From assembly GCA_964434055.1 (NCBI GenBank), contig CAYSSY010000001.1:5094-69093 (forward strand): a stretch of 64,000 nucleotides of DNA, given 5' to 3'. How positions within the stretch are numbered: position 1 is the stretch's first letter; every line of letters begins with the position of its first letter. A program made the translations under genes and the position numbers. The stretch comes from an uncultured Gammaproteobacteria bacterium (GTDB lineage Bacteria; Patescibacteriota; Patescibacteriia; UBA2196; CAYSSY01). Below the pieces are notes generated by a model that saw only the letters and a program-made list of their open reading frames with translations, did not search any database and was not told the DNA's origin. Shown one piece after another: positions 8,159-62,992 of the stretch.

Positions 8159-9559
8159 TTAATTTCTGTTGCCCAGACATTGTTTAAGATTATGACTATT
8201 TTGTGTTTTGCTGACAACTATCATCATACCAATCAGCAACCAAAACAAAACCGCTAAGTCATTTTTAAAATATGGCACATCGACTAAACCGTGAACAAGC
8301 AAGGCTATCATAGATGCCATCAATACGGTTGAAAATTTACAATCAATGACTGTTGTCTGTCGTTTGTTGTCTGTCGTTTGTTGTCTGTCGTTTGTTGTCT
8401 TTCTAAAACCAGCGACATAAAACCACCCGACTATTATTATAAAAGCAGTTAATCCTAACAAACCAGTTTCAGACCAAAAAGTCAAAAAAATGTTATGAGG
8501 ATATAAAAATATTTCAATATACTGCTTCTGGTGAAATGACGCCAGCGCGCTTTGATAACCATTAATACCCGAACCGAGTAATGGTCGTGTCTTTAGCATT
8601 TTAACAGTTTCACTCCACATTTCAAGACGAGTGGAAATTGAATCACCTCCAACAACTGTGGTGTCGCCTTTAAAATTCGGCAAGCCATTCATTAATATAT
8701 AAAAAAATAAAAATAAAAAAACAATAATTATGAATCCTAAAAAATATTTTCTAAACGGCTTATAAAAAAAGGCATAGAAAATAATACCCACTAAAACTGC
8801 CAATAATCCGCCTTTTGATTTAGTAAAATAAATAACGGTAAACCCCAAGATACAAGATAAAATTAACAATAAATTTTCAATTCTTAATTTCCAATTTTTA
8901 CTCAATTCCTTGACTCTCAATTTTTGCTTCTCAATCCCAGCTACAAAAAAACCCAACAACATTATAACTACTGGTGCCAGATAAAGCGCTAAGGCATTCG
9001 GATACGTAAAAATTGATGTTACTCGCCTGGTTGCCTCAGCTGCCCAAAAAGGATTAGTAATAAATTCACCGGTAAATTTTTGATACAAAGCAAACAATGA
9101 CAAGATTAAAACATTTAAACCTAAAACTGCGATTACTTTTCTAAAATCCTCTTTGTTCATGATCGAAATAAAAACAATAAAAAATAAAAATGGCTCTAAA
9201 AAATACGCGCGCCACAAACCGACGGCCGAATATAAGTTAGGCGACATAAAAATAGAAATAATTGATGCAATCAATAACAATGAACAGCCAACTAACAGTA
9301 ACTTAAAATTTATAATTTTAGATTTAAAATTGCTAATTATTTCTTTAGCGTCTCCGTATTTTAATGCTCTAATGAAAAAAACCACAAATAAAATCAAAAT
9401 TTCAAACTCCAATATGGTTGTTGGTAAACCAAAAACTTTAAAACGCACTAAATATAAAGGCAATGTCAAAATAACTAAATAAACACTATTCTTCAGATTT
9501 TTAAAAGAAAGAATTAAAAAAATTATCAAATAAATGGTAATAAAAAAAAGTTTAAGCAT
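8159..9559 (-). CDS. O-antigen ligase / Wzy-like polytopic membrane protein
   Basis: 466 aa, more than 10 predicted TM helices. Overlaps the downstream flippase gene by 8 bp, so the two form an operon. Confidence 0.5.
   Translation of the reverse strand: MLKLFFITIYLIIFLILSFKNLKNSVYLVILTLPLYLVRFKVFGLPTTILEFEILILFVVFFIRALKYGDAKEIISNFKSKIINFKLLLVGCSLLLIASIISIFMSPNLYSAVGLWRAYFLEPFLFFIVFISIMNKEDFRKVIAVLGLNVLILSLFALYQKFTGEFITNPFWAAEATRRVTSIFTYPNALALYLAPVVIMLLGFFVAGIEKQKLRVKELSKNWKLRIENLLLILSCILGFTVIYFTKSKGGLLAVLVGIIFYAFFYKPFRKYFLGFIIIVFLFLFFYILMNGLPNFKGDTTVVGGDSISTRLEMWSETVKMLKTRPLLGSGINGYQSALASFHQKQYIEIFLYPHNIFLTFWSETGLLGLTAFIIIVGWFYVAGFRKTTNDRQQTTDNKRQTTVIDCKFSTVLMASMIALLVHGLVDVPYFKNDLAVLFWLLIGMMIVVSKTQNSHNLKQCLGNRN
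8351..8400. repeat. 14-bp tandem repeat (tgttgtctgtcgtt x3.5) inside the coding sequence of 8159..9559
   Basis: Three full copies at 8351, 8365 and 8379, plus a partial copy. It encodes the repeated TTDNKRQ motif near the C-terminus. Confidence 0.8.
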
Positions 9560-10988
9560 GATTGCCGTTCTTACCTTTAATGAAATCTACTGGATTGAAA
9601 GTTCCTTTTTTAAAAACACCAAAAAAATATAAACTACTAAAATAAACAACGCCACCTAAAACGATAGACAGCAACAGACCTCTTTGACTAAAAAATATGA
9701 TCGTCGCCATTACTAAACTGGCTAAAAAACTTAAAAAACTATTCTTAAATTTAATTTTTATTTTTGTTTCCTGTCGGACATTCGCCCAAGAAGCCACAAG
9801 AATGAAAGCTTCAACAAAAACAGTTATCAGCGCTGCTGCCCAATATGAATAACGAGGAATAAAAATAAAATATAAACTAAGCGCACTCAAAGCAGCTACA
9901 ACATAATATTTCATCATTGTCTTCTGACGATTAACGGCAACAACGGCAAAAGTCGAAAGGTGTGCCCAAAAAATTATTCCAGTCGCGACAATTAATATTC
10001 TTAATATCCCAGCTGAGGCTATAAATTTGTCGCCAGCAATTAACATTATTAAAGGATTTGCTAAAATAATAGTTCCTAAAACCATAGGGCAAACAATCAG
10101 TGACAAAAAATCAAAAGCTTTCTGAAAAAAATTCTGGAATTCTATTTGGTTTTTCAAGGACCAAGCGCGAGAAAGATAAGGTGAAACCAAACCCATAAAA
10201 ATCGCTGGAAATGCAATAAGAACTTCTAAAATTTTGTATGGCGCGCCATAAATTCCTACTTCTGACTGTGGACGATAAAGTGAGAGAATAATAGTATCAG
10301 CTTTAAAATAAATCATTGAAAAAACCATATAAGTCGCCACTGGCCATACTTTTTTAAAAGTATCACGCCAAATATTTTTATCAAAAGCAAAAGAAAAAGA
10401 TAAAATTTTTCTGGCAAAATAAAAATTAATTAGAAAATGGACAGCCGTACCAGCCACAACAGTTAGAAGTACGGTCAAAAAACCAGCCTGACTCCTAATC
10501 ACTATCAAAGTCAGTGCTAAAATAATAATCTTGCCACAAATTTCTGCCAGAGCTGGATATTTTGTTTTTAACTGTTGTTGAAAAAGTGCCACCAGGATCT
10601 GATCAAGCATCATTAAAAATACCGGAATGGCAATAATTAACGTACCATTTTTTATTTCTTGATCATAAGGAAAAAGAAAAATAAGTACACCGGCTAAAAA
10701 CATAAAAAAAAGACTGGAAAAAAATCGCATGGTAAAAATATTGCTATAAAATCTTTTCTGATCTAAATTATCACGCCCTAATTCATTAACTGACACTAGA
10801 TAAAGTCCTAGATCACCAATGGTTGAAAAGAAAAAAAGATAGGAAAAAACGGTGGTATAATAGCCATAACCTTCCGGACCTAAATAGCGAGTCAATAACC
10901 CGATAATGAACAAACCTAAAGCCGAACCGGAAAATTTTCCCAGTGTATGAATAAGTGTATTTTTAGCAATGGAAAGCTTTAAACTCAT
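9552..10988 (-). CDS. Polysaccharide biosynthesis protein / oligosaccharide flippase (Wzx, MOP superfamily)
   Basis: The N-terminus LKLSIAKNTLIHTLGKFSGSALGLFIIGLLTRYLGPEGYGYY is typical of Wzx. The track start 11024 is TTG; the start was moved to ATG 10988. Confidence 0.7.
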   Translation of the reverse strand: MSLKLSIAKNTLIHTLGKFSGSALGLFIIGLLTRYLGPEGYGYYTTVFSYLFFFSTIGDLGLYLVSVNELGRDNLDQKRFYSNIFTMRFFSSLFFMFLAGVLIFLFPYDQEIKNGTLIIAIPVFLMMLDQILVALFQQQLKTKYPALAEICGKIIILALTLIVIRSQAGFLTVLLTVVAGTAVHFLINFYFARKILSFSFAFDKNIWRDTFKKVWPVATYMVFSMIYFKADTIILSLYRPQSEVGIYGAPYKILEVLIAFPAIFMGLVSPYLSRAWSLKNQIEFQNFFQKAFDFLSLIVCPMVLGTIILANPLIMLIAGDKFIASAGILRILIVATGIIFWAHLSTFAVVAVNRQKTMMKYYVVAALSALSLYFIFIPRYSYWAAALITVFVEAFILVASWANVRQETKIKIKFKNSFLSFLASLVMATIIFFSQRGLLLSIVLGGVVYFSSLYFFGVFKKGTFNPVDFIKGKNGNHA

Positions 10989-11136
10989 AGGTTGATTGTA
11001 GCACCTGACACGCCTTTTTGACAAAAATCTATATAGATATTTTGATTTTTTTATCCACAGTTGACGCTTTAGTAATTATCCTTTATTCTTAATAATGAAA
11101 ATGCCTATCAGACAAAAAAAATTAAACACTTACTGA

Positions 11137-11200: not shown

Positions 11201-11689
11201 ATGACCCAAAGAATTCAAGACACATATTTAACCAATCTCTTGCAAAGGCAAATTAATCAAGAGGCAAAACCAAACTGCCCATTTACCGAGTCATGTCTGT
11301 TGCATAAAAAAAACATGTGCCCAACTCCTCAGTTAAATTCTTGTGGTGAGTTTACCAGCCTAATTATCGGTCGCTGTCTAATCTGTCAATATCAAAACAG
11401 ATTGAAAGTTCGTACAATTGATGGCACTGATCTAGAAATAAGCCGGGATTGGTTAAAAGTCACTGTTCTAAAACCTTTCTTTCAAGAATTGCCGCCAATT
11501 ATCTGTAATCACTGCCGTCAACAAATATACAACCGTTGCCCGCGCTGTGATAATAAAGGCATCTTAAAAATTGGTTTAAAGACTGGCTGGCTGACCTTGC
11601 CAAAGGAGTTAAAAAAAATAGATCCATTCAAGAAGCTATTTGAGGAACTTGGTTGGGTGCCATGCGATCAATGCTGCCAAGCACAATAA
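11201..11689 (+). CDS. Cys-rich zinc-ribbon-like hypothetical protein (multiple CxxC pairs)
   Basis: AGGAGGG SD. 20 Cys in 162 aa, including CNHCRQQIYNRCPRCDN and CDQCCQ. Confidence 0.5.
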   Translation: MTQRIQDTYLTNLLQRQINQEAKPNCPFTESCLLHKKNMCPTPQLNSCGEFTSLIIGRCLICQYQNRLKVRTIDGTDLEISRDWLKVTVLKPFFQELPPIICNHCRQQIYNRCPRCDNKGILKIGLKTGWLTLPKELKKIDPFKKLFEELGWVPCDQCCQAQ

Positions 11690-46357: not shown

Positions 46358-47935
46358 ATGAACCAAAATAAAACAAATAATAAATTGTTTAATATTAAAT
46401 CTGATTTATCTGATAAAAGGAAATCACGTGTTTTTTATTTAATTTCTGTGATTTTACTTATTTTGGCTATTACTGGAATTTTAATTTATTCACAAAGTTT
46501 TTTAAAAAAAGTAAAAACAAATAGATTAATAGATGCTGTTGTTACAGACACTCTCTTATTTGCACAGATACCGGTAAACTATCTTCTAATTAGTGACTTA
46601 GATAAAAATAAACAGCAAGATGCTTGGTGGCTAGCACTCAAAAATAAATACCAATCCGATTACCTTGGGCGACTAAACCTGAATATTAACGACTTTGAAT
46701 CTCTCTTAAAAAAGGGGGTCAAAAAAATTGGAATAATAAACACTAAGAACAATGACTTAGCTTTAATTCTTGAATTTGTTAATCAAAATCAAATTGCCAA
46801 AATTATTGCTAGTGACTTAACAAAGTTTCCGCACTTAATAACTAATAAAAATATTGCGGTCATAACCTCCTCTAATAATTTACTTAATGAAATCTCATTT
46901 CAACTCAAAAACCCAAACGCCGTCTCACCAAAAAACTTAGCGCTTCAAAACCAAATAAAAGAAAATCAGCTTTCCGACGAACACGTCTTTATGTATTTAG
47001 ATTATTTTTTGTGGCAACAGATATTGGCAAACCAAAAATTATCAAATTTAGTTGACATAAAATCTTTAGTCAACAATAAACCAGCCTTTGTTAATATAAT
47101 AAAAAAAAATCAAGGTCTTGAATTAAATATATCTCTCTCTCATGTACTAGAATCAGCAATAGTATTTGATAACCAAGACAGCGACCAAAAACAAAATACG
47201 ATTATAGAAAAAATTAATAATCCTGATTTAATTTTTTTTACAAATTTCAAGCCGATATTATACATGCAACAAATCGAAAAAAAAATAAGCAATGAATATT
47301 TGGAAAAAAAATGGAATGGCCTAATTGATATTTGGAAAGAAAAATATATTTTAAACTCTGATGAAATAAATATTTTTTTGAATCAAAATTTAACTCTGGC
47401 TGTTCCGGTTGATCAAATTGATAATTTTTTTTCTGGCAATTACGATATCCTATCTAATCCATATCTGTTAGTATTCAAAAAAAACAACGAGAGTGTTTTT
47501 TTTCTTGAAATGGTCAAAAAAATAATTGCTGTTAGAAATCCCGAGGAAAAAATAACGATATTAACAGATAATAGTGAGGCAATTGAATTAATTGCTGAGC
47601 CACAGAATATAAATTTTTTAAAAACAGATGACGGGAAAAAAAATTATTATTGGCTACAAAACGGACCTGAAAAAGTTGGTTATTTCATTATGGATGACTA
47701 TTTATTTTTTAGCTCATCCATTGATATGTTAAATAAAATTTACATTGATCTGAATAAATCAAATAACTTAAATGAGGAAAGTAAGCAAACTTGCCTAAAA
47801 ACACCAAAAACCTTAATTCACTTTAACCAACCCGGTACAATTCATAAGAATCTCTCTCTTTTTAAAAAAGCTACTTTAATGGGTTTGGAACATAAAAAAA
47901 ATTATCTTAGTATCAATTTATGCCTTGAATATTAA
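46358..47935 (+). CDS. Hypothetical membrane-anchored Asn/Lys-rich protein
   Basis: A single N-terminal TM helix (VFYLISVILLILAITGILIYS), then a 480-aa low-complexity soluble part. Confidence 0.4.
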   Translation: MNQNKTNNKLFNIKSDLSDKRKSRVFYLISVILLILAITGILIYSQSFLKKVKTNRLIDAVVTDTLLFAQIPVNYLLISDLDKNKQQDAWWLALKNKYQSDYLGRLNLNINDFESLLKKGVKKIGIINTKNNDLALILEFVNQNQIAKIIASDLTKFPHLITNKNIAVITSSNNLLNEISFQLKNPNAVSPKNLALQNQIKENQLSDEHVFMYLDYFLWQQILANQKLSNLVDIKSLVNNKPAFVNIIKKNQGLELNISLSHVLESAIVFDNQDSDQKQNTIIEKINNPDLIFFTNFKPILYMQQIEKKISNEYLEKKWNGLIDIWKEKYILNSDEINIFLNQNLTLAVPVDQIDNFFSGNYDILSNPYLLVFKKNNESVFFLEMVKKIIAVRNPEEKITILTDNSEAIELIAEPQNINFLKTDDGKKNYYWLQNGPEKVGYFIMDDYLFFSSSIDMLNKIYIDLNKSNNLNEESKQTCLKTPKTLIHFNQPGTIHKNLSLFKKATLMGLEHKKNYLSINLCLEY

Positions 47936-48083
47936 TAATACAAACCAATTATTGGCTGTGCATAACATGTTAATTATTTCATTTACTTATTTAGTTACGG
48001 CTTAAACAAAATTCAACTTTTATAAATTTCACAAACTAGTAAATTATGGTATTTTGTTTTATATTAGCTAAATATTATTAACG

Positions 48084-48112
48084 TTGACAGAAAACAAAAA
48101 ACTTGCTATACT
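48084..48112 (+). promoter_or_regulatory. Strong sigma-70-type promoter TTGACA-N17-TATACT in a 680-bp intergenic region
   Basis: ttgaca at 48084-89 and tatact at 48107-12. No ORF follows for about 500 nt. Confidence 0.5.
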
Positions 48113-48399
48113 AAAAGCAGAACTAAAATAAAAACAAAAACAGCTAAGATAAACTTCTTCTTAAAAAATAGGTCCTTGAGAAATCAATTATAGATTCTTG
48201 AAGATTCTTAATAAAAATGAATTTAAGAAGAATTTTTTCTTTACTGTTCGTTTAGGGTTTCAATGCCGAAAAACCCCAAAAAACTAAAGTAAAAAACAAA
48301 AATAAAAAGGTAAACTTTTATTATTTATATATAGAGGTCTTACCATAAGAACGGTAATAGAAAATACGCTTGCTTTTTGACATCACTCGGCACAAAAAG

Positions 48400-48565
48400 C
48401 ACCAGATTTGTGGATAAGAAACACAATCTGGGAAGCGGACACATATTTCGAACACTTTCAATCAAGGGTTTGAGATATGTGTCCGTGCCCAGTGGCCTTA
48501 TCCACTTGGGCGCGTTACGTCCTTAAAATAACTTTTAATTGGGGCGCTAACTGCGCCCTTTTTTG
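48400..48565 (+). ncRNA. Candidate stand-alone structured ncRNA: a long nested hairpin followed by a strong intrinsic terminator
   Basis: Nested inverted repeats GTGGATAAG/CTTATCCAC, CTGGG/CCCAG and GGACACATAT/ATATGTGTCC. Then GGGGCGCtaactGCGCCC plus T6 (48541-48565). A new promoter TTGATT-N17-TATAAT (48583-48611) follows for the next gene. Confidence 0.4.
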
Positions 48566-48627
48566 TTTATCAAATTTATATATTGATTTATTAAAGTAAT
48601 CTTGCTATAATTTCTGTGTCAAAAAAT

Positions 48628-48990
48628 ATGAACAATGAATTTATCCAAGAACAAAAAAAATTATTGACCGAGCAGTTAGAAGAGTTTTCGTTGCGTTTAA
48701 AAAATAATACGATAAAGACTGACCATGGCGAAGAAGTAAAATTTCCTGATATTGGAGATGCTTCTGATGAAAATGCTGCTGAAGTTGATCAATATCAAAA
48801 TTCTTTAGCCTTAGCAGAAACTCTTGAAAAAGAAATATCTGATATAAAAAAATCACTTGAGCGTATTGAAAAAGGCACTTATGGTGTCTGTAAATATTGT
48901 GGCAAAGAAATAAGTGAGGGTCGTTTAAAAATACGTCCGACATCTTCTTCGTGTGTGGATTGCAAAAAAAAATTATCCGGTGAAGAATAA
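48628..48990 (+). CDS. DksA/TraR-family C4 zinc-finger protein
   Basis: C-terminal CKYCGKEISEGRLKIRPTSSSCVDC, plus a coiled-coil N-terminus. The track start is GTG 48616; ATG 48628 was used. Confidence 0.7.
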   Translation: MNNEFIQEQKKLLTEQLEEFSLRLKNNTIKTDHGEEVKFPDIGDASDENAAEVDQYQNSLALAETLEKEISDIKKSLERIEKGTYGVCKYCGKEISEGRLKIRPTSSSCVDCKKKLSGEE

Positions 48991-48999
48991 CTTTAAAGC

Positions 49000-49437
49000 A
49001 TGGCTAAAATACCTAAAAAATTTTTGGGGATCAGTCTAATTTGTCTGGTCCTTTTTGTTTTAGACAGATTTTCAAAAAACTTCTTCCTAAATAATCACAA
49101 TATTAATCTGTGGGGGTTAACTAGTTTTCAAAAGAATTGTGGTTTTATTTTTGGCGCGCAGTTTCCCGGTTGGGAAAATATTTTTTATACTTTTATTTTT
49201 TGTGCTTTTATTATTTTATTTTATTTATTAATTGTTTTTTTAAAAGAAGGAAGAATAACAGAACTACTAGCGACAGAACTTATAATCATCGGGGCTTTGA
49301 GTAATGTTCTTGACCGTATATTTTATGGTTGTGTTACTGACTTTATTAGCTTTTGGATTCTGGGGGTATTTAACATGAGCGATGTTTACATTTTTATCGG
49401 TGCTTTATTTTTATTTTTAAATTACTTAAAAAAATAG
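49000..49437 (+). CDS. lspA: Lipoprotein signal peptidase II
   Basis: Four TM helices with LSNVLDRIFYGCVTDFISF and FNMSDVYI motifs. Confidence 0.7.
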   Translation: MAKIPKKFLGISLICLVLFVLDRFSKNFFLNNHNINLWGLTSFQKNCGFIFGAQFPGWENIFYTFIFCAFIILFYLLIVFLKEGRITELLATELIIIGALSNVLDRIFYGCVTDFISFWILGVFNMSDVYIFIGALFLFLNYLKK

Positions 49438-57411: not shown

Positions 57412-57729
57412 TCAAATACTTCCCAAATAGTTAAGTTTTGGGTGATGTTTGCTGTGTGCCCTATTTAAAATTAACTGATACCCGCCTGTACCTTTTTTTA
57501 GCCATTTAGCAATTCTTGCTACGGTGGTGGAACTTAAACCAGTTTCTTTTTCGATGGTAGAATAGGGAATTTTATTATTAAGTAATTGTGCTGTTGCCCA
57601 GCGTTTGCTAAATTCTATTATCTCTTTCTCGGTCAATAGATCACGTAAAAAAGCTTTTGCTTCATCGTAATTAGCAAGTAATAGTATTGCGTTATATAAA
57701 TTGTCTATTCTAATGTTTTCTTCTAACAT
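57412..57729 (-). CDS. YerC/YecD (TrpR-related) small DNA-binding protein
   Basis: LLANYDEAKAFLRDLLTEKEIIEFSKRWATAQLL...STIEKETGLSSTTVARIAKWLKKG. Confidence 0.65.
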   Translation of the reverse strand: MLEENIRIDNLYNAILLLANYDEAKAFLRDLLTEKEIIEFSKRWATAQLLNNKIPYSTIEKETGLSSTTVARIAKWLKKGTGGYQLILNRAHSKHHPKLNYLGSI

Positions 57730-57841
57730 AACTATACTTTATTTGACTAAAGTACTTTACCTAAATAAAGTATATATTATAGCTAATAGGTTGTCAAGTA
57801 TATAGAGGAATATCCCCATAAATAATAACTTATCCTCAATT

Positions 57842-57861
57842 TGTCTACATTGGTGTAGACA
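57842..57861. repeat. Perfect palindrome TGTCTACA-ttgg-TGTAGACA followed by a T-run (copy 1 of 2)
   Basis: Seen directly in the sequence. Copy 2 is at 58195-58214. Confidence 0.8.
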
Positions 57862-58194
57862 TTTTTATCAACAAAAGGCATCTATTGTCAGTTTCCACAT
57901 GGAAACTCACAAAAAGCTTAGTACAATCAAACCTATCTTTTCCAAAAAAACAAAAGGAACAAGAATAAACCTTTTGATAAAAAAACTTTTCAAATGATTA
58001 AAACAAATAAATGTATAATTTTTTTAAATTATAACTAAAATTAGCTATAAAGCTTAAATTAACTAAAATCAATAAATAATTATATGATATATAAACTTTT
58101 TGGCTAATACAAAATTTTTTTAGCAAAAAAATTTATTTTAGCATTTTTAATAATTATTTGACTTAATATAAAATTTGTGTTTTAAAAATATTAA

Positions 58195-58214
58195 TGTCTA
58201 CACTAGTGTAGACA
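58195..58214. repeat. Perfect palindrome TGTCTACA-ctag-TGTAGACA flanked by an A-run and a T-run (copy 2). It doubles as the likely terminator of the minus-strand tRNA pair.
   Basis: Seen directly. It lies immediately 3' of tRNA-Ala on the minus strand. Confidence 0.8.
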
Positions 58215-59940: not shown

Positions 59941-60651
59941 CTATTTCTCGTGTTTATTTAAAAAATAAATCTGTTGAGCAATGGTTATAATTGTTGTCAT
60001 AAACCAATACAACGCTAGACCGCTGGGAAATTTAAGACCAAAATAAAAAGTTAAAAGCGGCATTAAAAAAATCATCTGTTTATTCATTATTGCAGCCATG
60101 TTTTCATCTTTAGCTGTTTCAATTTTTGGTGATTTTTTTGTCATCAACATTTTTGCTGACCACCATTGTGCAATAGCGGCTAAACCAGCCAATATAACAT
60201 TCGGCTGACTTAAATCGATAATATTTAAGGAAATGGTATTAATTTGACCGGGGTTACCAATAAAATTATATATTAAATTAAAATTAGCAGATTTAAGCCC
60301 GCTTTGAAAGGATTGATATATGGCAATAAAAAATGGCAACTGAATTAGTAATTGCAAGCAAGAAGAAAATGGATTAATTTTTTGTTGTCTATAAAGCTCC
60401 ATTGTTGCCCGAGATAAATCCTCTTTGTTGTGAGCATGTTTCTTTTTTAATTCTTCAAGTTTTGGTTGAAGTTCTTGTAAAATTTTTTGCGATTTTATTC
60501 TCTTCAAAGATAGAGGAAATAGAATCAAATTAATAATAAGAGTTAAAACAACAATAGCCACCCCTATATCTTTCCCTGGTATAATATTATATAAAAAAAT
60601 TAATAAATTAAAAATCGGTTGATATAAAAAAGTATTATAAAAATTGATCAT
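59941..60651 (-). CDS. yidC: Membrane protein insertase YidC (short YidC/Oxa1 type)
   Basis: 236 aa. 5 TM helices. Gene order is rpmH-rnpA-yidD-yidC. Confidence 0.8.
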   Translation of the reverse strand: MINFYNTFLYQPIFNLLIFLYNIIPGKDIGVAIVVLTLIINLILFPLSLKRIKSQKILQELQPKLEELKKKHAHNKEDLSRATMELYRQQKINPFSSCLQLLIQLPFFIAIYQSFQSGLKSANFNLIYNFIGNPGQINTISLNIIDLSQPNVILAGLAAIAQWWSAKMLMTKKSPKIETAKDENMAAIMNKQMIFLMPLLTFYFGLKFPSGLALYWFMTTIITIAQQIYFLNKHEK

Positions 60652-61624: not shown

Positions 61625-62992
61625 ATGAATCCAGAACAACTTTGGCAAACAACCCTTGGTGAGCTTGAGTTAATGATTTCTAAAGCTAATTTTACTACAT
61701 GGTTTAAAAATACTTATGTCGCCTCTTGGGAAAAATCAAAAATTATTATTGGCGTTCCCAATACATTTACCAAAGCGTGGCTTGAGAAAAAATATCATGG
61801 CTATATTTATAAGGCTTTACAAAATTCTTCAAAAGGTGAGATAAAAGAGATTATTTATAAGGTTGAGATAAAAAAACCGCAAAATAATATTCTTGTTAAT
61901 AACTCAAGTGTTGTTACAAATAGCGTTTCGGTGTCTGAGTCTGGTGTTCAATTAAATAATTTTGGCTTAAATAATTACTATACTTTTAATAAATTTATAG
62001 TTGGTAAGGGTAATGAATTGGCCCATGCAGCGGCTCAGGCTGTGGCCCGCCAACCGGGCTCTCTATATAACCCTTTTTTTATTTATGGTGGGGTTGGGTT
62101 AGGTAAGACTCATTTGCTTCAAGCGATTGGTCATCAAATTACTGAAAATTATAAAGATAAAAAAATTCTTTACATTACTTGTGAGAGGTTTACTAATGAC
62201 TTTGTACAATCAATAAGAAATGGAACATCTTTGGAGTTTCAGGGTAAGTATCGGGGAGTTGATGTGTTGTTGATTGATGATATTCAATTTATGGCTGGGA
62301 AAGAGCAGACTCAGGAACAATTTTTTCACACATTTAATGCTCTACACCAAAACGGAAAACAAATTATTATATCTTCCGACAGACCACCAAAAGCTATACC
62401 CTCTTTGGAAAACAGACTTTTGTCGCGTTTTGAGTGGGGCATGATTGCTGATATTGGACAGCCTGATTTTGAAACACGAATAGCTATTTTGGAGGCAAAA
62501 CTAGCCGAAAAGGGATTAGATATTGAACTTGGTCGTGATATTATTAATTATATTGCAACAAATGTTCAAAATAATATTCGTGAATTAGAAGGCTCTTTAA
62601 ATAGAATTCTTGCTATTTACGAATTAAATAAAAAAATACCTACGATTGATGAGGTAAAAATAATAATTAATTCACTAAACACAAGAGCAAAAAAAACCGC
62701 CATAACCTGCAAATATTTAATAAAAACAGTGGCTGATTTTTATGAACTAAACATTGATGATTTAATTGGTGAGAGTAGAAAAAAAGAATTGGTGTTTCCG
62801 CGACAAATTTCTATGTTTTTAATTAGAGAGGAAATTAAAAGTTCGTTTCCAAATATTGGACAAGAGATGGGTGGAAGAGATCACACAACGGCAATGCATG
62901 CTTATTCAAAAATATCAAAAGAGTTAGAATCAAACCAAAAATTACAACAAGATATAAATTTAATAAAAGAAAAGTTGTATAGTAATTGTTGA
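61625..62992 (+). CDS. dnaA: Chromosomal replication initiator protein DnaA
   Basis: Walker A GGVGLGKTHLLQAIG. LLIDDIQF. The C-terminal DnaA-box binding domain reads ISMFLIREEIKSSFPNIGQEMGGRDHTTAMHA. Confidence 0.95.
   Translation: MNPEQLWQTTLGELELMISKANFTTWFKNTYVASWEKSKIIIGVPNTFTKAWLEKKYHGYIYKALQNSSKGEIKEIIYKVEIKKPQNNILVNNSSVVTNSVSVSESGVQLNNFGLNNYYTFNKFIVGKGNELAHAAAQAVARQPGSLYNPFFIYGGVGLGKTHLLQAIGHQITENYKDKKILYITCERFTNDFVQSIRNGTSLEFQGKYRGVDVLLIDDIQFMAGKEQTQEQFFHTFNALHQNGKQIIISSDRPPKAIPSLENRLLSRFEWGMIADIGQPDFETRIAILEAKLAEKGLDIELGRDIINYIATNVQNNIRELEGSLNRILAIYELNKKIPTIDEVKIIINSLNTRAKKTAITCKYLIKTVADFYELNIDDLIGESRKKELVFPRQISMFLIREEIKSSFPNIGQEMGGRDHTTAMHAYSKISKELESNQKLQQDINLIKEKLYSNC

Follow-up and report, generated by a model that had tools for sequence, protein, structure and literature searches.

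What occupies the spacer of 680 base pairs (bp) between a gene for a protein of 525 amino acids (aa), which ends at 47935, and a dksA-like gene in the genome of an AT-rich member of the Patescibacteria (candidate phyla radiation [CPR])? The spacer is part of a stretch of DNA of 64,000 nucleotides (nt) on contig CAYSSY010000001.1, referred to here as the window, in whose coordinates all positions are given. A preliminary description had noticed in it a strong promoter, a long hairpin with DnaA-box arms and a terminator, and had proposed a stand-alone noncoding RNA (ncRNA), which might resemble 6S RNA or whose pair of DnaA boxes might titrate or sense DnaA. The analysis reported here led us to conclude, with a probability of about 75%, that the feature is a gene of about 450 nt for an independently transcribed, highly structured ncRNA of a Patescibacteria family absent from Rfam, that its predicted ends lie at 48119 and 48565, that the RNA acts in trans, and that in most lineages the gene is linked to the DnaA/origin region. 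The proposal of a stand-alone ncRNA held up, but two thirds of the conserved structure, on its 5' side, had gone unnoticed: as judged by comparison with relatives, the flagged stretch is the 3' part of the RNA gene, that is, its variable 3' domain together with the terminator.

A sigma-70-type promoter of the RNA gene is found at 48084-48112 on the forward strand (TTGACA-N17-TGcTATACT, an 11/12 match with a TG-extended -10 element), from which transcription is predicted to start at about 48119 and to yield a primary transcript of about 447 nt (48119-48565, forward strand). The terminator, GGGGCGCtaactGCGCCC followed by T6 at 48541-48564, is the sole terminator-like site within 47800-48800, and behind it a separate forward-strand promoter-like site for the downstream genes is present at 48583-48611 (TTGATT-N17-TGcTATAAT, a 10/12 match with the TG). 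Both promoters, TTGACA-N17-TATACT and the TTGATT-N17-TATAAT site ahead of the DksA/TraR-like gene, and the canonical terminator with its T6 had been named in the preliminary description, and all three were found where it had placed them. The same is true of its stretch of about 450 nt without an open reading frame (ORF): the RNA region contains no ORF of at least 60 aa, and two frames of 49 aa (48377-48526) and 40 aa (48477-48599) on the forward strand overlap the hairpins. In the closest relative (L175; L numbers denote the compared loci) a deletion of 1 nt disrupts the 49-aa frame, and the short ORFs of the window showed no conservation in homologs. A small-protein gene was rejected on sequence grounds. 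The 5' part of the RNA also includes a mini-ORF of 12 codons (MNLRRIFSLLFV and a stop codon, 48217-48255), which is devoid of a Shine-Dalgarno sequence, has lost its stop codon in L175 and is probably non-coding.

Comparative alignment of the regions upstream of dksA-like genes, which the preliminary description had recommended as a check, revealed a conserved RNA family with a covarying fold. The comparison used 50 loci from species-representative genomes, each encoding a relative of the DksA-like protein, and many of these loci have an unexplained gap of 500-1200 bp upstream of the gene. The first link, between the window and L016, was obtained with nhmmer, and a single-sequence covariance model built on the originally described region (R1) then added L008 and, weakly, L023. 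Beyond L016 and these two, R1 matched only the reverse strand of the window itself, because the hairpin is near-palindromic, and it was superseded by nhmmer iteration and by model R2. An alignment of the Falkowbacteria-like loci revealed a clearly conserved element, and iterated nhmmer enlarged the set to 17 loci, to which L131 and L175-L179 were added later. By nhmmer and covariance models, homologs were found upstream of dksA-like genes in L005, L006, L008, L012, L014, L015, L016, L018, L023, L024, L034, L035, L038, L039, L048, L131 and L175-L179, and a further one on the other strand in L011. As delimited by these models, the family is present in at least 20 Patescibacteria loci. L175, whose DksA is 75% identical, was the closest relative found, and L040 carries a visibly related member that the searches missed, which indicates that the family is wider than they show. 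Specificity was controlled with metagenome contigs retrieved by the pattern TACT..AAAYAAAAAYAAAA..GGT, which is too loose for AT-rich DNA: of 120 AT-rich contigs, the models matched one, the only true homolog.

The fold predicted for the family consists of a 5' hairpin, a long-range helix of 10-12 bp, two kissing hairpins, an A-rich strand, a variable hairpin and a terminator hairpin, all of which were located on the forward strand of the window. The conserved structure reaches 5' to about 48155; the 5' hairpin (48154-48232, arms CUUCUUCUUAAA / UUUAAGAAGAA) has a lineage-specific length and is also present in L175. It is followed by the 5' strand of the long-range helix, segment x (UUUUCUUUACUGUUC, 48235-48249), which pairs with the 3' strand, segment c (GAACGGUAAUAGAAAA, 48349-48364). 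Enclosed between them are a small hairpin GGGUUU/AAACCC (48255-48277), the A-rich single strand AAAAAACAAAAAUAAAAA (48291-48308) and a stem GGUAA/UUACC (48309-48344) around a weak hairpin formed by 48315-48321 with 48331-48337. The A-rich strand, in which AAAYAAAAAYAAAA is followed by GG, makes up the most conserved columns of the family and is invariant in alignment A5. On the 3' side of the long-range helix, hairpin H2 (GCUUUUUG / CAAAAAGC, 48372-48400) presents the loop UCGGCA (48387-48392), the kissing partner of the complementary loop UGCCGA (48264-48269) of the small hairpin. Then come the three-tier hairpin H3 (48410-48505) and the long terminator hairpin H4 (48508-48564), in which GGGCGC-GUUA-CGUCC pairs with GGGCG-c-UAAC-u-GCGCCC up to 48558 and U6 follows; in an alternative pairing, the 3' strand of H4 forms the short terminator hairpin at 48541-48558.

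This predicted secondary structure is backed by compensatory changes beyond those seen in controls. The folding energy of 48330-48566 is -90.9 kcal/mol, compared with -53.7 ± 4.2 kcal/mol for shuffled sequences (z = -8.95), the whole predicted transcript (48119-48566) has a z of -8.77, and the single-sequence minimum free energy structure of the window transcript matches the comparative model. For seven Falkowbacteria-like sequences aligned blind to structure (A6), RNAalifold returned 61 pairs, 25 of them with compensatory changes, in a fold in which a 12-bp long-range helix between the conserved CUUCUCUACUG motif and GGUAGAGAAG encloses a small hairpin, the invariant A-rich strand and a GGUA/UACC stem around another hairpin, and is followed by H2, a variable long H3 and the long terminator hairpin H4. 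With the kissing contact included, 89.9% of the cells of A6 pair and 28 of the 67 pairs have changed on both sides; none of 500 shuffles equalled this, and slid controls reached at most 56%. In the core domain (A10, 11 sequences including the window) 92.4% of the cells pair, a value inflated by the fitting of A10 to the model (A6 was not fitted), two-sided changes occur in 24/36 pairs (0/500 shuffles), and 9 of the 13 pairs of the long-range helix show compensatory changes. The kissing loops covary as well, reading GCCGAU/GUCGGC, GUUGAC/GUCAAC and GUUGAA/AUUCGA in homologs and UGCCGA/UCGGCA in the window. The core covariance model R2 scores the window with 44 bits (E ~1e-6) and also matches L175 and L016, and the GC-rich Uhrbacteria-like group retains the long-range helix and the GG/CC stem. 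RNAalifold gave no structure on a 15-sequence MAFFT alignment, which was too gappy; the subgroup alignments gave it. Four segments within 48235-48364, x (CUUUAC), a (GGUAA), b (UUACC) and c (GGUAA), can pair in two ways, namely x-c with a-b, which is the consensus, or x-a with b-c, and all four have changed in concert in L016, to AAC, GGUU, AACC and GGUU (UAC to AAC, GGUA to GGUU).

Conserved helices contain G-U pairs that would be A-C mismatches on the other strand, and the forward strand is therefore taken as the transcribed one. In A5 the RNA promoter is aligned at the same position in 12 of 15 homologs (TTGAC[CA]-N17-TGnTATAnT), and a GC-rich hairpin with a U run closes every family member. 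Behind the terminator, the window, L175 and L016 each have a promoter-like site, which reads TTGCCT-N17-TATAAT in the latter two. The 3' end of the RNA lies 60 nt upstream of the dksA-like start in the window; in L024 an ORF intervenes between the two, and in L011 the RNA lies on the opposite strand, upstream of rplS. Since the gene has its own conserved promoter and terminator, a promoter-like site behind it, a linkage to dksA that can be broken and no conserved ORF, we conclude, in agreement with the preliminary description, that about 48119-48565 is a separate non-coding transcription unit and not a 5' untranslated region.

No known RNA accounts for this unit. A comparison of the whole window with Rfam at gathering thresholds yielded only transfer RNAs (tRNAs), a search of 47900-48700 at E ≤ 10 gave only noise and no 6S RNA (RF00013), and 20 homolog loci at gathering thresholds, plus three at E ≤ 1, gave nothing at the RNA and tRNAs elsewhere. 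The family matches 0 of the 4227 families of Rfam 15; the Rfam scan for 6S RNA, signal recognition particle (SRP) RNA and others, suggested earlier as a check, thus returned no family for the RNA. ARAGORN detected no transfer-messenger RNA (tmRNA), and a literature search found no described Patescibacteria RNA of this kind. RNase P RNA, SRP RNA, tmRNA and the catalogued large ncRNAs were rejected for want of a match to an Rfam model or, for tmRNA, to ARAGORN, and RNase P, SRP, T-box, retron msr/msd and a tmRNA-like tag were also rejected on sequence grounds. The closest parallels in architecture are the orphan large structured bacterial ncRNAs raiA, ROOL, OLE and GOLLD, which were found by comparative genomics and all have Rfam entries. 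Like them, the RNA described here is encoded by a free-standing gene that has a promoter and a terminator of its own, is several hundred nt long, has several domains, long-range helices and a pseudoknot-type tertiary contact backed by covariation, and is confined to one lineage; it differs from them in having no sequence or structure match to them in Rfam, in its Patescibacteria range and in its adjacency to DnaA-box clusters.

The hairpin that had first attracted attention is H3, built from an outer (48410-18/48497-505), a middle (48428-32/48488-92) and an inner stem (48436-53/48468-85). The last 165 nt had been described as one three-tier hairpin; the hairpin is real, but it spans only 96 nt, and the rest belongs to the terminator hairpin (48508-48558). 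Its outer arms are GTGGATAAG (48410-48418) and CTTATCCAC (48497-48505), and of the two DnaA boxes that had been called perfect, one is (TTATCCACA, 48409-48417, reverse strand), whereas the other, TTATCCACT at 48498-48506, has one mismatch (8/9). H3 is the most variable part of the family, differing between lineages in sequence and in length (about 65 nt in the Falkowbacteria-like group vs 96 nt in the window). L016 folds into the same three tiers, and the middle and inner stems covary with those of L016 and L008 (CG to UA, GC to UA, AU to GC). In the four-sequence MAFFT alignment of H3/H4 the outer stem and H4 of L016 and L008 were out of register; only the middle and inner stems were therefore counted, and the outer one was read directly. 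Its arms are GACCAT / ATGGTC in L016 and GATCAT / ATGATC in L008, and in L175 they are GCGGTTAAG / CTTA-CCAC, the first arm or the second having two mismatches to the box and its partner a deletion; at this position DnaA boxes are not kept in L175, L016, L008 or any other homolog. Pairing has been kept in the relatives while the box sequence was lost, which argues that selection maintains the helix but not the box sequence, and the second box is explained by the need of the helix for a complementary arm. We infer from this that the box sequence in the H3 arms is incidental in one species, and the functional box pair in the hairpin that had been envisaged finds no support in the relatives. Across the window DnaA boxes are not enriched (26 with at most one mismatch vs 19 ± 4.5 expected; two perfect ones vs 0.71 expected). 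The only other perfect box of the window lies at 11051-11059, in a 175-bp spacer between divergent genes, one for a polysaccharide-biosynthesis protein (9552-11024, reverse strand) and an ORF at 11201-11689 (forward strand), and gene orientation flips there from reverse to forward.

A link to DnaA nevertheless exists, at a place other than the hairpin arms: consensus DnaA boxes are found upstream of the promoters of homologs. The homolog loci, 280 kb in total, contain 33 perfect TTATCCACA/TGTGGATAA boxes compared with about two expected, and nearly all of them sit 550-800 bp upstream of the dksA-like gene. Relative to the -35 element of the RNA promoter the perfect boxes lie 73-240 bp upstream, the proximal one in most cases between -73 and -85, with an AT-rich spacer behind it. 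At least one perfect upstream box occurs in 14 of 17 lineages; the other three, including the window, have one-mismatch boxes only. L048 has at least seven upstream boxes, and in L011 the boxes have moved along with the RNA and not with dksA. What is left of this cluster at this position in the window is a single degenerate box, TTATGCACA (47957-47965, reverse strand, one mismatch, 127 bp upstream of the -35 element). Among the boxes of each Falkowbacteria-like locus there are two to three copies of a palindrome, GTCYACA-N4-TGTRGAC, which in relatives is restricted to that cluster. In L018, L023, L034, L035, L038, L039 and L131, the interval from a tRNA gene to the RNA promoter contains copies of AAGTCYACA-N4-TGTRGACTT (in L039, for example, at 2120-2330), and some of them resemble terminator hairpins.

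In the window the palindrome, as GTCTACA-N4-TGTAGAC, occurs exactly twice (0.21 expected), at 57843-57860 and 58196-58213, and the intergenic region that holds this pair (57830-58213) is oriC-like. Both copies are accompanied by DnaA-like boxes, TTATCCTCA and TTATCAACA, and by about 230 bp of AT-rich DNA, and the region also contains a parS-like palindrome, GTTTCCACATGGAAAC. It coincides with the minimum of the cumulative GC skew, which is noisy over 64 kb, and it lies 3.4 kb from the yidC-rnpA-rpmH / dnaA-dnaN block, composed of yidC (59941-60651) and rnpA plus rpmH (about 60.9-61.43 kb) on the reverse strand and of dnaA (61625-62992, 13 kb downstream of the RNA gene) and dnaN (from 63202) on the forward strand. 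The rpmH-dnaA and dnaA-dnaN spacers have almost no DnaA boxes. One reading of these data is that 57.8-58.2 kb is the origin of the window and that in many relatives the RNA gene directly adjoins the corresponding region, the two being about 9.5 kb apart here. One of the palindromes lies in the upstream region of a gene for a Trp-repressor-family (YerC/YecD-like) protein of 105 aa (57412-57729, reverse strand), and the palindromes may instead be operators of this regulator or terminator hairpins.

Could the RNA, in spite of its own promoter and terminator, be a cis-acting leader, that is, a riboswitch or attenuator of the dksA-like/lspA operon with the terminator as expression platform? Its end 60 nt before the dksA-like start and the linkage of the two in most loci would fit such a role, as would the alternative pairings of segments x, a, b and c and those of the 3' strand of the terminator, which can pair with either G-rich strand (48508-13 or 48541-47). 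Both terminator pairings, however, put a hairpin directly before the U run, which would leave no antiterminator; the promoter-like site after the terminator in three loci and the broken linkage in L011 and L024 point the same way, and with 350-450 nt and a strong promoter of its own the RNA is far larger than known leaders. We regard a leader as quite improbable. A divergent 6S-type RNA that sequesters the RNA polymerase holoenzyme, the likeness proposed in the preliminary description, appears very improbable. The RNA looks strongly expressed and abundant, stands alone, includes a long imperfect hairpin and adjoins the gene for an RNA-polymerase-binding DksA-like factor, and no 6S RNA gene is annotated in the window. 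In 6S RNA, a closing stem joins the two ends of the molecule and a large central bubble separates long helices. Here, by contrast, the ends form no closing stem, the fold is multi-domain and not a rod with a conserved central bubble, conservation is lowest in the long hairpin, the length is about double that of a typical 6S RNA, and RF00013 gave no match even at E ≤ 10.

Two further explanations start from the DnaA boxes. If the boxes in the H3 arms were functional sites on the DNA of the window species, they could sense or titrate DnaA or block transcription. The perfect box and its one-mismatch partner are inverted relative to each other at a distance of 80 bp, a stretch of 550 bp contains three boxes with no more than one mismatch compared with about 0.4 per kb in the window, and the family is otherwise associated with DnaA boxes, of which this locus has lost the upstream ones. 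This explanation is nevertheless improbable in view of the decay of the boxes in L175, L016, L008 and the other homologs and of the automatic origin of the second box from its helix arm; in addition, DnaA binds duplex DNA (through domain IV), so the RNA hairpin itself would be no DnaA ligand. The other explanation places the function in the upstream cluster of the relatives, which would be a chromosomal origin or a DnaA-titrating cluster, and transcription of the RNA gene or the RNA itself would take part in the control of replication initiation, possibly by a promoter that fires away from the unwinding region, by DnaA-dependent expression, or by an RNA that regulates initiation factors. It draws on the consensus boxes (up to seven per locus) at a fairly constant distance from the -35 element, on the AT-rich spacer, on their company with the RNA and not with dksA in L011, and on the restriction of the cluster palindrome in the window to 57843 and 58196, close to boxes, the GC-skew minimum and the dnaA block. 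The gidA and mioC promoters, which flank the E. coli oriC and activate the origin by transcription, offer a parallel, as in relatives a strong promoter abuts the DnaA-box cluster and AT-rich spacer and is directed away from both; the E. coli promoters transcribe genes for proteins, whereas the promoter described here yields a conserved structured RNA, and the origin beside it is a candidate one. Both explanations based on boxes also have a precedent in Caulobacter, where the cell-cycle ncRNA CcnA is encoded within the replication origin by a gene that contains weak DnaA boxes, has 182 nt, base-pairs with the ctrA and gcrA mRNAs and is CtrA-controlled (PMC8959179). The likeness lies in an ncRNA gene tied to DnaA-binding or origin DNA, with boxes inside the gene as in the window; there is no homology, and the RNA described here has 350-450 nt and a compact covarying fold. 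Control of replication initiation by this route is, however, unlikely in our judgement: the RNA gene of the window has an intact promoter and a complete fold even though the cluster is missing, no dnaA was found within 10 kb in L178-L180, of which L178 and L179 carry the RNA, gene orientation around the RNA loci (homolog contigs were read over ±3-10 kb) is not origin-like, the GC skew is noisy, the palindromes could be TrpR-like operators or terminator hairpins, and the adjacency may be inherited synteny without function. In AT-rich DNA the definition of the DnaA-trio/BUS (basal unwinding system) is so degenerate that matches to it carry no useful information.

We therefore retain the reading of an independently transcribed RNA that would work in trans through its fold, as a scaffold that binds a protein or ligand, and not as the leader of the dksA-like gene. 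Its functional core would be the compact 5' domain, in which the long-range helix, the kissing loop and the invariant A-rich strand probably create the binding surface, and H3 would be a variable peripheral element. The position of the gene, and possibly its transcription, would be tied to DnaA or the origin in most lineages, with the adjacent DnaA-box cluster serving as a replication-origin-like or DnaA-controlled upstream region and the link loosened to about 9.5 kb in the window. Several points weigh against this reading. Besides the fitting of A10, the sequences all come from one radiation, with 7-15 per alignment, and their relatedness feeds into the shuffle statistics. The ends of the transcript are predicted from sequence features, and the scaffold role in trans is deduced from architecture; the alternative pairing of x, a, b and c hints at a conformational switch and hence at a possible regulatory role. 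A perfect DnaA box is expected by chance in a 450-nt gene with a frequency of only about 0.005, and its dismissal as incidental leans on non-conservation in a single close relative. Finally, the region upstream of the RNA gene in the window has no DnaA-box cluster, and the DnaA link is not demonstrable at this locus.

The ultra-small Patescibacteria have genomes of about 1 Mb with very few known ncRNAs, and new classes of large structured RNA are rare and have often proved to be ribozymes, ribonucleoprotein scaffolds or new regulators. An RNA of 350-450 nt whose strong promoter, covarying tertiary contact and invariant A-rich strand have been retained through several orders probably has an important role. 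By the searches described above the family is previously uncatalogued, and its link to DnaA-box clusters is intriguing: repeated placement beside clusters of consensus boxes is unusual for an RNA gene and provides a testable handle on a connection of replication initiation, DnaA and RNA in uncultivated bacteria. That a conserved folded RNA beside a DnaA-box and unwinding region is a component or regulator of replication initiation in Patescibacteria is a tentative and rather doubtful idea; if it were true, transcription of the RNA under DnaA would help to open the origin, or the RNA would feed back on initiation, and a major bacterial radiation would have an RNA element in the control of its chromosomal origin. 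For annotation, the data suggest that the long "empty" spacer upstream of dksA-like/lspA in such genomes is a gene.

The proteins encoded on either side of the RNA gene have their closest relatives in metagenome-assembled genomes (MAGs) of Patescibacteria, for example Kuenenbacteria, Falkowbacteria and Uhrbacteria, and identical copies of the locus were found in one Joint Genome Institute metagenome contig (3300028622) and three Logan assemblies (SRR27676563, SRR27676565 and SRR27676566); SRR22387921 contains a relative. GC content climbs from about 0.25 to 0.45 across 48350-48550. The upstream 525-aa protein has no Pfam family, and a test for homology of its gene with those upstream in L012 and L048 was negative. 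Downstream, outside the RNA, lie the gene for the DksA/TraR-type zinc-finger protein (48628-48990) and the signal peptidase II gene lspA (49000-49437), both on the forward strand; the dksA-like/lspA pair, which we take to resemble the ylyA-lspA pair of Bacillus, is kept across the homolog loci. In L016, L178 and L179 this pair is separated from trmD by the RNA. The position of the RNA upstream of rplS in L011 corresponds to the spot where rplS follows trmD, as it does in many bacteria. The otherwise near-identical contigs of L178 (1-7400) and L179 (1-5900) carry, a few kb upstream of the trmD/RNA/dksA block, different mobile-element cargo, including a serine recombinase, a restriction-modification system, a DnaD-like protein and helix-turn-helix proteins, and this site looks like an insertion hot spot. 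Several contigs with the RNA (L005, L013, L017, L018, L020, L024 and others) come from records titled as "Gammaproteobacteria", "Acutalibacteraceae" or "Vicinamibacterales" MAGs and have typical Patescibacteria gene content; these records are probably mis-binned or mislabelled.

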